A stretch of DNA of 60,075 nucleotides from Coleofasciculus sp. B1-GNL1-01 (GTDB lineage: Bacteria > Cyanobacteriota > Cyanobacteriia > Cyanobacteriales > Coleofasciculaceae), in NCBI GenBank assembly GCA_040220235.1, contig JAVJTO010000029.1, one strand, 5' to 3'. The notes beneath the pieces were generated by a model. It saw nothing but the letters and a program-made list of their open reading frames with translations, was not told the origin of the DNA and did not search any database. The position numbers and the translations under genes are program-made. Positions within the stretch are counted from its first letter, which is position 1; every line of letters begins with the position of its first letter. This document shows, piece by piece, positions 10,021 through 15,497 of the stretch.

Positions 10021-11742
10021 CTATTGATTCGGTGCCCACTGGCTAATCCGGAAGATTACAAATTCAGCCGGACGTACTGGACAAACACCAACTTCTACAT
10101 AGAGACGACCCAGCATAATCGTCTCATGGGTATTGATTTCCCCATCGCACTTAACGTAGAACGATTCCCCCGGCGAAGACCCAAACAATGCACCCTCACG
10201 CCATAGCCGTTCCAGGAAATTGCTAACCGTGCGGCGTACCCGCGCCCAGAGAATTTGGTCATTTGGCTCGAACACCACCCACTGAGTACCAATTTCAATG
10301 GATTTCTCAATGTAGCTGAGTAAGCGGCGGACACTGATATAACGCCATTGCACGTTATCCGGTTCTACCAACGTGCGAGCGCCCCAAACCTTGTAGCCTC
10401 GGTTGTAATTGGCGAAGTTACGGATACAGTTAATCCCCATCGGGTTCAACAGTTCCTGTTCCCGCATATTGGTGTCATAGGCTAAACCTGTTACACCTCG
10501 CGGTGTTTCGTTCGCGGGTGCTTTGAACACGCCGCGTGTTTCATCCGTGCGACACCAAATCCCCATCATGTGACCGCAAGGAGGGACATACATGGGACGC
10601 CCACCATTGCGAGGATTCGCCACTTTAATCCAGGGATAATAAAGAGCGCCAAACATGGAACGGCGGTTAAATAGTTTTAACCAAGCCGCCACATCTTGAG
10701 GCTTCTGTTGGTCAGCCGAAACCGGGTTATCTCCTTTCGTCGGCTTGACTGGGGGTGCATCAAGAACCGCCATCCGGTAGGCGGGACCAGGGAAGGAATT
10801 CTCGCACATACTCAGCATCATTTCCATGACACCGTGAACTTGTTCTAAGTTCATCAATCCCTCTTGATACACTTTCATCAAGTCAGGACAAGCAATCATG
10901 GCGACTTCATCAATTTCAAAAATCCCCTGTGTCCCGGTGCGGTCATCCCGTTGTCCTTGTAAATCGCGGGCGAAGTGGTCGGGGTCAGAAATGTAGGGTG
11001 GCGGTGTAATCTCATACGCTCCCTGCATGGGTCGCCGTGACAGGGGTTGTCCGCTTTGGGAGATGTCAACCGCTTGGATAAATTCCGAATCTTCAACAGC
11101 GGTAACTACATAGTCAGCCACCTGTGTTTCCGCTTCCGGATTCATCGTCAGGTGGTCATACCGTTCCAATTCCTCTTCGCCCCGTGCCACAATCAGGTCA
11201 AAGAATTCGCCTGTGTTGTACGGAGGTTCGGCATCCTCTGGCGCGTCTTCCGGTAAGGGTTTGGGTGTACTTTCTTGAATCACCACCCGCAGCCGAGGTT
11301 CATCACCACCCGGTAGCGCTAAGGCTCCCCCTTCTTCTGATTCTGATTCCGCTGGTTTGAGCGTGAACTGTAAAGAGGGGCGATTTCCGGCTGTGAGAAT
11401 CTTAGTCCCCGTTTGCTCGATTGGCGGCGGTTCAGCACCTGGTAGTTTAGTACCAATACTGGTCACCCAACAGCGACCACCACCATTGAGAAACCACCCT
11501 TGAACCGCAAAGGGTAAATAGGCGTTAAAGTCCGTAAACCCATCAGATCCTTCTTTGGCAAAGGACTGCAAATACTGATCCCAAGTGGTAATCAGCATGG
11601 GTTTAAATAATTCGGCATCACCACGTACATCCTCGGTAAACCCAATAAATCCGGCGACACTCATACTAATGCCCTCAATCGGGCGACTGCCACGGTCTAC
11701 CTCTTCAACGTAGACTCCTGGTGCAAAATAATCTAATGGCAT
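10021..11742 (-). CDS. Contractile tail sheath protein (eCIS Afp2/3/4-like)
   Basis: APGVYVEEV, F.NGG.RC, YYPW, KAPANE, WGARTL, YISVRR, VFEPN, PVRPAEFVIFRISQ; GGAGG RBS. Confidence 0.97.
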   Translation of the reverse strand: MPLDYFAPGVYVEEVDRGSRPIEGISMSVAGFIGFTEDVRGDAELFKPMLITTWDQYLQSFAKEGSDGFTDFNAYLPFAVQGWFLNGGGRCWVTSIGTKLPGAEPPPIEQTGTKILTAGNRPSLQFTLKPAESESEEGGALALPGGDEPRLRVVIQESTPKPLPEDAPEDAEPPYNTGEFFDLIVARGEEELERYDHLTMNPEAETQVADYVVTAVEDSEFIQAVDISQSGQPLSRRPMQGAYEITPPPYISDPDHFARDLQGQRDDRTGTQGIFEIDEVAMIACPDLMKVYQEGLMNLEQVHGVMEMMLSMCENSFPGPAYRMAVLDAPPVKPTKGDNPVSADQQKPQDVAAWLKLFNRRSMFGALYYPWIKVANPRNGGRPMYVPPCGHMMGIWCRTDETRGVFKAPANETPRGVTGLAYDTNMREQELLNPMGINCIRNFANYNRGYKVWGARTLVEPDNVQWRYISVRRLLSYIEKSIEIGTQWVVFEPNDQILWARVRRTVSNFLERLWREGALFGSSPGESFYVKCDGEINTHETIMLGRLYVEVGVCPVRPAEFVIFRISQWAPNQ

Positions 11743-11759
11743 GAGTAATATTCCTCCAT

Positions 11760-13163
11760 CGTTTTATCTCGTGGGACTCCGACCTCAACGAAGTAGGTCG
11801 GAAGGGGATAGAGGTCAAACCGCGCCACTCACTTCGACTTCGCTCAGTGTGGTGAGGTTTGACAATCCAACTGTTGATATCAGCCCGGTATTTCGCTGCA
11901 ACAATTGGACTTTGGAAGTGGTAAACCTCCCTATTCGTTTCCAGTTAGCGTTACTAACCGAAACTTCAGTTTTAGTATTGCCGGAAACATAACCGTAGTA
12001 GGTAATTCCAGCTTTAACAGCTTTGACGTAATCGCCCTTCCTGAACCCGTGGCGGCTAATGGTGCCGCCGTAGTTTCGCCGCAGCCCTCCTTTGCTGGGA
12101 ATCATTCGGTGTAGTTGGCGGCGGCAAATTGGGGGGCGGCTGATTACTGCGAACGGACAGGGTGTTACCGCCACAGAGCCTAAGAAGGTGCCACTTCGCC
12201 CTTTGATTTGGCGATACCGCATAAACTGGGAAGCGGCGAGGCAGATACCATCAACGGCATGGGCGGCGGGTGACTCCTCTGCTTTGTTTTTGGACTTGGG
12301 TAAACCGAGGTACTTTCTCAGGTTAGATGTATACCATCCCTCTTGAGTGTGGACGGTGTAACCAGCTGACGCAAGTTGTTCAATCTGCCAATGCTGACCG
12401 ACCATGGCGGGGCTAAATCCTTTGTCCCCTCTAGCTTTAATTACTTCCACCACTACATCGGTGAATGGGTAAATTTTGTTCAACTCCTGAATCACCCTCA
12501 ATGGAAGGTGCTTATTAGCCCGAATGCTAGGGGGTATCTTGTGACCCTTGCGGTTGTCGAATCTGCGCTGGCGGTGGTTGCGTTGGTTAAAAGGTAGCTT
12601 GCGGTTAATCCGTCGCCCTCGCCGTCCCCGTCGCATCATTGCCCGTTGGCTCATCCGTTTGGTCACGGTTTTAAACGGTAGGTTAAGGTGAGCAAGGAAC
12701 AGGGTCTCACCCTTTGACTGAACCGCCACTCCGGTGAACAGTTTACCCGGATCGATTCCGGTCAAAATGTCCTGAGTTTTTTTGCCCGATGGTTCCTCAA
12801 CTAACTGGACTTGAAAGATGCCTAGGTCATTATGTACTACTTTAGCTTTCCCAGCCTTTAACCATCGCCGAACACGGCTGGCTTTGGCTGGCATTAATGG
12901 TTTACCTTTCGGTGATAAAACTGGTACACGAATCATGGGTATAAGCCTCTCGTGTAAAGTTGTCAGTCCCCTCGAACACCGTTAACAAAATGTCCTCTCT
13001 TAAAGCGCTTATGACAAGTAAGCTTGCAGGGTTCACGGACTGGGGAAGTATCCGGAAGTGCGTATCAGCTAACGGCTCAACGGTTCTATTCAGCTCTTGC
13101 GTCACCAGACTTGTCTCTGGCAATCCCTAACGGAGGAGCGATAGCTAGGTTAGGGTTGTTGAA
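11760..13163 (-). mobile_element. IS200/IS605-family non-autonomous IsrB (OMEGA) element
   Basis: Begins TTCAAC, then omegaRNA and isrB ORF, subterminal hairpin TCCGACCT-N9-AGGTCGGA at 11778-11802; no tnpA. Confidence 0.85.
11815..12936 (-). CDS. isrB: IsrB RNA-guided nickase (RRXRR/PLMP domain, split RuvC, no HNH)
   Basis: PLMP, GIDPG (RuvC-I), Arg-rich bridge helix RRGRRGRR, VVEV (RuvC-II), HAVDG (RuvC-III), RRQLH; 373 aa with no HNH. Confidence 0.9.
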   Translation of the reverse strand: MIRVPVLSPKGKPLMPAKASRVRRWLKAGKAKVVHNDLGIFQVQLVEEPSGKKTQDILTGIDPGKLFTGVAVQSKGETLFLAHLNLPFKTVTKRMSQRAMMRRGRRGRRINRKLPFNQRNHRQRRFDNRKGHKIPPSIRANKHLPLRVIQELNKIYPFTDVVVEVIKARGDKGFSPAMVGQHWQIEQLASAGYTVHTQEGWYTSNLRKYLGLPKSKNKAEESPAAHAVDGICLAASQFMRYRQIKGRSGTFLGSVAVTPCPFAVISRPPICRRQLHRMIPSKGGLRRNYGGTISRHGFRKGDYVKAVKAGITYYGYVSGNTKTEVSVSNANWKRIGRFTTSKVQLLQRNTGLISTVGLSNLTTLSEVEVSGAV

Positions 13164-13185
13164 TTAAGATTTAAATCAGCCAACA
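12937..13185 (-). ncRNA. omegaRNA (HEARO-like scaffold plus 5' guide) of IsrB
   Basis: Structured leader of about 230 nt directly upstream of isrB; hairpins; TCCCC/GGGGA pseudoknot potential; 5' end is approximate. Confidence 0.8.
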
Positions 13186-13268
13186 GAAAAAAACCTGATA
13201 ACTGATAATGTCAACTTCTAGAAGATATTGACAAAAGAAGTTGTTTGTGCATATTGCAGGCAATAATA

Positions 13269-13565
13269 GCTGGCATTAATGGTTTACCTTTCGGTGATAA
13301 AACGGGTACACGAATCATGGGTATAAGCCTCTCGTGTAAAGTTGTCAGTCCCCTCGACCACCGTTAACAAGATGTCCTCTCTTAAAGCACCTAAACAAGT
13401 AGGTTTGTAGATAGTCCAGACTGGGGAAGTATCTGGAAGTACGTGCCAGTTAACGGCTAATGGTCTATTCAACTCTTGCGTTGCCAGTCCTATCTCTGGC
13501 AATCCCTAACAGAGGAGCGATAGCTAGGTTAGGGTTGTTGAATCCGTAATGCTGCTGGCTGTAGC
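13269..13565 (-). ncRNA. Second, orphan omegaRNA with a different 5' guide and only the first 17 isrB codons
   Basis: 13269-13543 is homologous to 12887-13164 with compensatory substitutions; ORF stub MIRVPVLSPKGKPLMPA starts at 13318. Confidence 0.8.
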
Positions 13566-13799
13566 CAATCTCTGAATAATATTTTTCAGTGATAGCACGT
13601 CAGAACCTGTTCGTACAGGAGTCATTCCCTGTTGTAGCAACCAGCGATAAAGCTCTGGCCCCCTTAAGCTCTCCTTGAAAAACCATTGCTTATCTAAAGC
13701 AGTATAGATCCATCGGGTTAAAACAAATAGCGTTCTGTAAATCCGGGGATTTCCCTCAGATAAGACATCTAGCAGGGTTAGGGCAACAGCAGCAATCAT
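13544..13799 (-). pseudogene. Possible degenerate Pvc16/DUF4255-like eCIS gene
   Basis: MIAAVALTLLDVL start plus ICFNP..DLYCF in a shifted frame recall cyanobacterial Pvc16 N-termini; lies upstream of sheath; runs into the omegaRNA copy. Confidence 0.35.
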
Positions 13800-14180
13800 G
13801 GCCGTCTGTGATTAGGCTGTACGGATCAGCGTAATGAGAGAGGCTAACTTTAGTTATTTTATTAGACTAGGGTCAAAAATTTGTCATCAATATCTTTACA
13901 AATTATAAATTAAATATTAAAAAATGTTTAGGACTGTCGGTGCCGATTTAAAGAGTTTGCTTGATTGTGGGCTATGATGGTTATTTAGCATTTTTTAGTT
14001 TAATTTAGCTTACATCGTAAAGAAAAGTAAACTCAGTCGGTGGGGACAATTACAGTTAACGGCGAGGCTCGTCATTGGTCATACTCGCTTCGCGAGAAGC
14101 AAGCTACGTCATTGGTCATTGGTCATTCGTAAGGATTTAAGGGCTATTTACAGAACTTAATATAGGTAAGGACTCTGGTC

Positions 14181-15497
14181 ATGTCACAACTGGTCAAAGC
14201 GCAACTGATTTCAACTGATGGTGGCGGAACTATTGAATTTATGTTTAATCCCAATCAGTTGGCGTTCAATCAGCAAATTAATCTCACCAAAAGTAGTGGA
14301 GCTAGGACAGGCAGGGGATTGCCTAAAGTTAACTTTGCTTATCCTGAACCCGTCATCCTTACCATCAATGACCTAATTTTTGATACCTACGAGCAAGGGG
14401 AGAGTGTTCTAAAGCATATCAAATCATTTCGACAAGCGGTTGATTTTGCCGAATCGGGAGCAGGTCGAGAGAAACGCCCACCTACTTATGTATTTACCTG
14501 GGGGTCTCAAAAGTATATTCGCTGCTTTGTGACCAAACTCGATTACAATCTGACGATGTTTCTGCCGGATGGGACACCAGTACGCGCCAAGATTAACTTG
14601 ACGTTAGAAGAGATTGATGAGTCTACATCTCAACCGGGTATGTCCGCACCTACATCGAATGCCAGTCAACGCCAACAAGATAGCTTGTCAAGTCGCAAGG
14701 CTCGGCTGAAATCAGGCTCTGGTGCGAGTTCACCAACGTTACGTCCCTCGCCTCCGGCAGCACCATCAGCAAGTTCACCGACTACGGGAGCTTTAGGAGA
14801 TGCAGCTAATGCAGCGTCCCAAGCGACTTCCCAAGCCTCTGATGCGGCTTCTCAGGCAGCTTCCCAAGTTTCTGATGCAGCGTCTCAGGTGGCTGATACG
14901 GCATCCCAAGCTGCCTCTCAAGTTTCCGATGCGGCTTCCCAAGCCTCTGATGCAGCTTCTCAAGCGGCTTCCCAAGTTTCTGATGTAGCGTCTCAGGCGG
15001 CGGATACGGCGTCTCAAGCTGCCTCTCAAGCCTCCGATGCAGCTTCCCAAGCGGCGTCCCAAGTTTCCGATGCGGCTTCTCAGGCGGCGGATACGGCATC
15101 TGATGCTGCTTCTCAAGCTGCTGATACAGCGTCTCAAGCGGCGTCCCAAGTTTCCGATGCGGCATCCCAGGCGGCGGATACAGCATCCCAAGCTGCTTCT
15201 CAAGCCTCTGATGCGGCGTCCCAGGCAGCTTCTCAAGTTTCTGATACAGCATCCCAGGCGGCGGATACGGCATCTGATGCGGCTTCCCAAGCCTCTGATG
15301 CGGCGTCCCAGGCAGCTTCTCAAGTTTCCGATGCGGCATCCCAGGCGGCGGATACAGCATCTGATGCTGCTTCTCAAGCTTCTGATGCAGCTTCCCAAGC
15401 GGCTTCCCAAGTTTCTGATACGGCATCCCAGGCGGCGGATACGGCATCTGATGCTGCCTCTCAAGCCTCTGATGCAGCTTCTCAACTTGAAGAATGA
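14181..15497 (+). CDS. CIS tube-initiator (Afp7-like) N-terminal domain fused to a long A/S/Q/D repeat tail
   Basis: FMFNP..L, L.FDTYE, RPP...FTWG, MF.PDGTPVRA....TL.E; C-terminal ~230 aa of repeats. Confidence 0.85.
   Translation: MSQLVKAQLISTDGGGTIEFMFNPNQLAFNQQINLTKSSGARTGRGLPKVNFAYPEPVILTINDLIFDTYEQGESVLKHIKSFRQAVDFAESGAGREKRPPTYVFTWGSQKYIRCFVTKLDYNLTMFLPDGTPVRAKINLTLEEIDESTSQPGMSAPTSNASQRQQDSLSSRKARLKSGSGASSPTLRPSPPAAPSASSPTTGALGDAANAASQATSQASDAASQAASQVSDAASQVADTASQAASQVSDAASQASDAASQAASQVSDVASQAADTASQAASQASDAASQAASQVSDAASQAADTASDAASQAADTASQAASQVSDAASQAADTASQAASQASDAASQAASQVSDTASQAADTASDAASQASDAASQAASQVSDAASQAADTASDAASQASDAASQAASQVSDTASQAADTASDAASQASDAASQLEE
14797..15487 (+). repeat. Coding tandem repeats of 21/33 bp (ASQAASQVSDA, ASQAADT, ASDA units)
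   Basis: Directly visible in DNA and protein; synonymous positions vary between copies. Confidence 0.95.

Follow-up and report, generated by a model that had tools for sequence, protein, structure and literature searches.

The locus lies in a 60,075-nucleotide stretch of Coleofasciculus DNA (the window, analysed as a whole, whose coordinates are used throughout) and comprises two putative omegaRNA scaffolds and one intact isrB gene, extending from the 3' part of a decayed pvc16-N remnant towards the sheath gene of a contractile injection system (CIS). G000 denotes the genome of the window, and G001 to G008 the eight other genus genomes compared. The features, all on the minus strand, are:

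13902..13930, minus: sigma70-like promoter match (10/12 matches), preceding the decayed pvc16-N
13524..13799, minus: decayed remnant of a pvc16-N (CIS cap-type) ORF (Pfam and ortholog alignments)
13543..13562, minus: distal putative guide, the host flank of the distal insertion site (empty-allele identity)
13319..13542, minus: distal (orphan) predicted omegaRNA scaffold, the 5' end of a truncated ISC1 element
13266..13318, minus: first 17 codons of the distal isrB (13318-13268), then the deletion breakpoint
13164..13265, minus: spacer, host DNA separating both insertion sites (single match, 9/9 genus genomes)
13183-13164, minus: proximal putative guide, the last 20 nt of the spacer
12937..13163, minus: proximal predicted omegaRNA scaffold (HEARO E 0.011; structure support)
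11815..12936, minus: intact isrB, 373 aa (PF14239; DtIsrB alignment)
11760..11814, minus: 3' end of the proximal element, with subterminal hairpin and CG terminus
11756..11759, minus: target-adjacent motif (TAM) ATGG, overlapping the sheath ribosome-binding site (empty alleles of G001, G006 and G008)
10021..11742, minus: CIS sheath gene, with three gp19-type tube genes next (host operon)

The alignment agrees with the original prediction in showing two homologous minus-strand scaffolds with unrelated 5' flanks. They are 88.9% identical over 279 columns, with identical first 29 nt and near-identical 3' parts, and about 104-105 nt lie between the end of the distal homology and the proximal scaffold, where ~105 bp had been given. 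The intact isrB expected behind the proximal scaffold is present as a 373-aa ORF (12936-11815), and the distal copy does retain only 17 isrB codons, ending PLMPA. Two details needed amendment: the flanks proposed as guides are unrelated as described, but both boundaries had been placed 1 nt off, the A before TTCAAC being host DNA in the empty alleles; and the elements are at the head of the CIS operon, but the distal one sits inside the 3' part of the decayed pvc16-N rather than in a leader.

The only Pfam family matched by the proximal ORF is PF14239 (RRXRR; E 1.6e-45), and residues 2-352 align continuously to DtIsrB (8dmb; E 1.3e-40), while IscB chains match over residues 3-164 only. The PLMP motif (residues 14-17), the Arg-rich bridge helix and the split RuvC residues (D62, E164 and H226-D229) align to those of DtIsrB, and neither Pfam nor the DtIsrB alignment gives an HNH domain. 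In domains, catalytic residues and size (about 350-370 aa) the predicted protein is as expected for an IsrB, and the earlier identification is upheld.

The search with the Rfam HEARO model (RF02033) that had been proposed as a check gave a weak match to the proximal copy only (27.2 bits, E 0.011, below the gathering score of 83), and the Rfam scan returned no HEARO match for the distal scaffold at E ≤ 1. Since this model was built on the HNH-associated class, the sub-threshold score weakens the assignment to RF02033 and not the assignment to omegaRNAs. In single-sequence MFE folding neither scaffold stood out significantly from shuffles (z-scores of -0.74 and 0.06). For comparison across the family, a structure of 57 pairs and two pseudoknots was drawn by hand on the G003 copy and evaluated on nine of roughly 20 fetched family copies, namely those whose bounds were found by script, two identical ones being left out. 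Across these nine copies 98.2% of the cells are paired and two-sided changes occur at 18 of the 57 pairs, a count obtained in 0 of 500 shuffles, and sliding the structure gives at most 3. The multi-helix fold, with its covariation, lies directly upstream of isrB, in agreement with the predicted omegaRNA identity. The orphan scaffold can form 56 of the 57 pairs, including both pseudoknots (53 Watson-Crick, 3 GU, 1 broken), against 49 Watson-Crick, 4 GU and 4 broken in the proximal one, where one broken pair is an alignment slip. The orphan thus pairs better than its neighbour, as had been claimed for two helices, because it is closer to the family norm. All of the compensatory differences listed between the scaffolds are also present (GCTTA/TAAGC vs ACCTA/TAGGT, CGGA/TCCG vs CAGA/TCTG, GCA/TGC vs GTA/TAC). 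Judged from these comparisons, both scaffolds are confirmed as predicted omegaRNAs that have kept the family fold.

The genome of the window holds many isrB copies. Thirty omegaRNA-like loci were located in it, of which 17 have sequence similar to isrB no more than 1.5 kb away, 4 lie at contig ends and 9 have neither feature. The elements start with TTCA and finish with a hairpin and CG (TG in one), and the four bases adjacent to the 3' side of 19 element ends are ATGA in 10, TTGA in 5 and ATGG in 2, with 2 not found. Thirteen matches to Y1 transposase (PF01797) occur elsewhere in G000, and identical scaffolds are found at different sites in four genomes. The TT...CG termini and a target cut between N and ATGA/G fit the cyanobacterial ISC1/IS605B ends described in PMC4810608. 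Both insertions have the sequence characters expected of the ISC1/IS200-IS605 group, that is, subterminal hairpins, exact insertion, no target duplication and empty sites, and are assigned to it on this basis.

Shorter derivatives of the family are also present in G000. Mini-elements of ~295 bp that consist of an ORF-less omegaRNA with both ends kept lie at C119:4696, C71:128419, C55:36229 and C102:106391; ATGA is next in three of the four, each has a different guide flank, and C141:8615 is a diverged member. These mini-elements are true standalone omegaRNAs of the PATE type. A still smaller derivative with an internal deletion (~75 bp, C53:95963-96030) retains the 5' hairpin and, next to ATGG, the CG terminus, and its junction also occurs as a loose end in sequencing run X3.

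A comparison with related strains, as the original prediction had proposed, was made across the nine genus genomes and the metagenome contigs L055 and L056; named records that carry the orthologous locus belong to Coleofasciculus, and their alleles, which repeat those of two genus genomes, were not counted again. Four occupancy states were found. Five genomes (G001, G002, G004, G006 and G008) have neither element, and G005 has an empty proximal site together with a deletion that spans the distal site. G003 is occupied at the distal site only, by a full-length element (368-aa IsrB, 3' end, ATGG), its proximal site being empty. Both elements are present in G000 and G007, with the same truncation. 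In L055 and L056, identical to each other across the 1.2 kb examined, the distal site is empty and the proximal element lacks its omegaRNA as well as the first half of its isrB; they differ from G000 at 2/358 positions upstream and 2/594 in the 3' half of isrB. Four of the 24 listed sequencing runs were examined (2 RNA, 2 of unrecorded kind), all as assembled contigs. A contig in the RNA runs X2 and X3 has the same joint as L055/L056; the RNA runs carry a different allele, in very long records, and in run X17 one contig crosses the spacer with zero differences. The spacer has one match per genome in all nine genus genomes.

The orphan is most similar to the intact element at the same site. Over 276 nt it differs from the G003 element by 5 substitutions and a single gap, and its scaffold shows 6 differences from the G003 copy vs 31 from its proximal neighbour and groups with the G003 full element (FastTree support 0.905). 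Relative to such an element, the truncation lost everything beyond codon 17 (~1.1 kb) plus ~44 nt of host DNA that include the distal ATGG. The occurrence of each element without the other, together with the grouping of the distal copy with G003, bears out the view that two independent insertions took place rather than a recent duplication. The G003 allele suggests that the distal insertion came first, and the L055/L056 allele suggests either that the proximal one did or that the distal copy was exactly lost; the locus is a mosaic. Tandem duplications of 10 bp (L021, G003) and 4 bp (L022, G004) were observed exactly at the empty proximal insertion point, and may be scars left by a previous insertion or by nick repair that would blunt re-targeting.

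The empty alleles also reveal where the guides come from. The distal 20-mer is found at 20/20 identity, with ATGG directly after, in G001 and G004, and is likewise followed by ATGG in L055/L056; the proximal 20-mer followed by ATGG is found at 19/20 in G006 and 18/20 in G001 and G008. This comparison shows that each putative guide is host DNA 5' of its own insertion, and that guide plus ATGG equals the empty site. The ATGR motif is predicted to be the TAM of this cyanobacterial IsrB subfamily. Within G000 each 20-mer occurs once, and no TAM-flanked target was found at ≤3 mismatches, the best matches having 5 and 4. Viral contigs gave 0 exact matches for either guide plus TAM, and plasmids and phages, searched with the distal flank only, gave matches at E ≥ 2 only. 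The distal pattern had three matches in genome contigs, two of them orthologous empty sites and the third a Bacteroidales record (16 nt plus TAM) that we take as chance. The guide search suggested by the original prediction thus returned no target of note in the genome or viral contigs for either guide, nor in plasmids and phages for the distal flank.

The pvc16-N assignment follows from a 174-aa ortholog in G016, which matches PF14065 (E 1e-10) and to which the G006 version of the ORF aligns (E 5e-8); across the genus the frames are 60-128 aa or deleted, and another Pvc16_N match lies on C30. Unrelated inserts occur in the pvc16 remnant of G002 (L025; ~940 bp, resembling an IS605/TnpB remnant by eye) and of G008 (L026; shorter). 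The decay of pvc16-N and these other inserts indicate that the region is permissive to inserts. The proximal insertion left the sheath ribosome-binding site intact. The stretch at 13902..13930 is a candidate promoter for read-through into both scaffolds; it is a weak signal (6 sites found vs 4.1 ± 2.2 in shuffles), with a similar stretch in G001 and G005. Judged from orientation, it is plausible that the scaffolds are co-transcribed with the sheath operon. According to a preprint, IscB/TnpB elements tend to share the orientation of the genes upstream of them because their guide has to be transcribed from outside (bioRxiv 10.1101/2023.03.14.532601); since such a bias is expected of IscB-type elements, the position in the CIS operon needs no special explanation.

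Some further features of the surroundings were recorded. The sheath matches PDB 8bky/8bl4 over its full length (E about 1e-105), being far closer to it than to Anabaena All3325, Pvc or Afp. We take 8bky/8bl4 to be the Streptomyces cytoplasmic CIS, and with this closest match the label of an "extracellular" CIS is not established. A CIS_tube gene (PF19266) with a long Ala/Ser/Gln/Asp repeat tail is located at 14181-15497 on the plus strand, divergent from the sheath operon; Rfam isrG matches within it were rejected as repeat artefacts. Short tandem heptamer repeats at 14070-14130, presumably of the cyanobacterial STRR type, attract reads from the whole genome.

We consider it probable (roughly 0.83) that the arrangement results from two independent insertions and a deletion at the distal one, the orphan scaffold being a recent relic in what is mostly ordinary transposon turnover. 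As the alleles show, two ISC1 (IsrB) elements of an actively spreading non-autonomous family inserted independently at the head of the CIS operon, each immediately 5' of an ATGG motif and with no target duplication, the two motifs being ~140 bp apart. By analogy with the established IscB/TnpB mechanism, a TnpA acting in trans would excise the proximal element; guided by the proximal RNA, IsrB would nick the rejoined empty site, whereupon recombination would restore or spread the element. In the lineage of G000 and G007, as the comparison shows, a deletion then took the distal isrB after codon 17, the 3' end and the ~44 host bases. Read-through from the weak promoter match that precedes the pvc16 remnant probably reaches the orphan, which may, as a by-product, load IsrB in trans; having lost its 3' end, the orphan cannot rebuild its original target by its own excision. 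The alternative that the original prediction had named, a dead relic of an older insertion, is only partly borne out: relatives do reveal a relic, but the structure of the orphan is not visibly decayed.

The same alleles bear on whether this preserved fold reflects selection. The distal variants of the three helices also occur in the G003 element and at other loci, in intact copies throughout, so the compensatory changes arose when the RNAs still worked with an isrB of their own, predate orphaning and are no sign of selection on the orphan. No substitutions distinguish G000 from G007 in either scaffold, in the spacer or in 708 nt upstream, and the pair is too close for a selection test. Their sole difference upstream of isrB is a 1-nt gap at 13459 in the G000 orphan, where X14, X17 and one X3 contig agree with G007; the gap may be private to G000 or an assembly error. 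Within isrB the same two genomes differ by a cluster of seven substitutions and an insertion (12047-12061 and 11844), being identical elsewhere bar that gap, which suggests patchy gene conversion from a paralog. Compared with G003, the orphan has diverged less (5/276) than the upstream host DNA (28/358), which could reflect constraint. Low divergence need not have this meaning, given the identical scaffolds at different sites in four genomes, and in its first hairpin the distal copy is more like its proximal neighbour than like the G003 ortholog, which hints at local homogenisation. Recent arrival and some exchange between copies explain the state of the orphan as well as constraint does.

An unlikely though coherent alternative to the turnover reading is that the deletion created, by accident, a working composite in which two near-identical 5' ends share one 3' end and one IsrB guards both excision products. 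TnpA could excise the inner element (1,404 bp), for whose donor joint the proximal RNA would be the guide, or the whole composite (1,783 bp). The latter excision would join the distal flank to the proximal ATGG and so give exactly distal guide plus TAM, a target for the orphan RNA, and IsrB could nick a doubly empty allele twice, homing the whole block into it. The identical first 29 nt of the scaffolds, the ATGG at both sites and the intact orphan fold are as this scenario needs, and the genus includes alleles that are empty at both sites and have a 20/20 distal target; moreover, according to bioRxiv 10.1101/2023.03.14.532601, both ends are required for excision and the natural target is the donor joint. 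Against it, the predicted joint was seen neither in the two metagenome loci with the distal guide, both plain empty alleles, nor among those listed for four runs, a small sample. The single-copy spacer in 9/9 genus genomes, again a small sample, indicates that the block has not moved there, and the alleles offer no evidence of selection after truncation.

Much less credible is the idea, close to the minimal two-guide array for one IsrB of the original prediction, that the pair is domesticated and targets foreign DNA or regulates the injection-system operon. The locus does combine several scaffolds, distinct guides and one nuclease, in the same orientation as the sheath operon, with the fold intact and the arrangement common to G000 and G007. 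Nevertheless, both guides are host flanks rather than sequences drawn from or aimed at non-flank targets, and the empty alleles largely refute the idea. The viral, plasmid and phage searches described above gave no match of note, and the arrangement is confined to 2/9 genus genomes that are nearly identical at the locus. The catalytic residues of IsrB are kept, unrelated inserts lie in the same region of G002 and G008, and an orientation bias is expected of IscB-type elements. With inherited helix variants and orphan scaffolds common in G000 besides, a selected array is not supported. Least likely of all, a scenario in which one omegaRNA was recently duplicated in tandem and its guide replaced, towards which the shared first 29 nt and near-identical 3' parts might point, is refuted by the G003 and L055/L056 alleles, each with one element and not the other, by the distal copy grouping with the full element at the same site in G003, and by a spacer of ordinary host DNA.

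Two insertions with a later deletion place the locus within known biology. In PMC4810608, the ISC1 elements (ISC1-1_MA, ISC1-1/2_CC) likewise encode IsrB only, with no cis transposase, have subterminal hairpins and a CG 3' terminus, and insert 5' of an ATGA-type motif without duplication, in several copies per cyanobacterial genome. Compared with those descriptions, the present locus has ATGG at both sites (ATGA being commoner in the genome) and two insertions ~140 bp apart, one of them truncated. The DtIsrB-omegaRNA complex (8dmb; PMC9581776) shares the domain order, catalytic residues, 5' guide, two-pseudoknot scaffold and an NTGA-like TAM. Up to the start codon the scaffold measures about 225 nt here and 262 nt there, and the TAM here, ATGR, is deduced from alleles. 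The preprint bioRxiv 10.1101/2023.03.14.532601 describes donor-joint retention by IscB/TnpB, in which guide plus TAM equals the empty site and elements are co-oriented with host transcription, as here; this is shown there for double-strand nucleases, and for the nickase IsrB it would hold by extension. Standalone omegaRNAs are already in print, and PMC9581776 and PMC11610941 have ORF-less scaffolds near an intact nuclease, or sharing a genome with one, and carrying a different guide, as the orphan does. What distinguishes the orphan from such standalone or array omegaRNAs is that its origin can be traced through orthologous alleles as insertion then deletion, with a host-derived guide. The literature covered, which is incomplete, gave no account of a tandem IsrB omegaRNA arrangement, and this is weak evidence. 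OmegaRNA arrays with different guides were reportedly described by Altae-Tran et al. in 2021.

The locus thus illustrates known biology at good resolution: its naturally occurring alleles, whether empty, single or double, define the element ends and allow a TAM (ATGR) to be predicted for a cyanobacterial IsrB subfamily that is uncharacterised. A further lesson is that a tandem omegaRNA pair can be the product of two insertions and a deletion, which calls for caution when arrays are called from single genomes. If the composite were real, the locus would represent a traceable first step from a single-guide OMEGA system to a multi-guide array, by neighbouring insertion and deletion, and would offer a cheap test of the origin of multi-guide OMEGA systems and of nickase-driven transposon retention.
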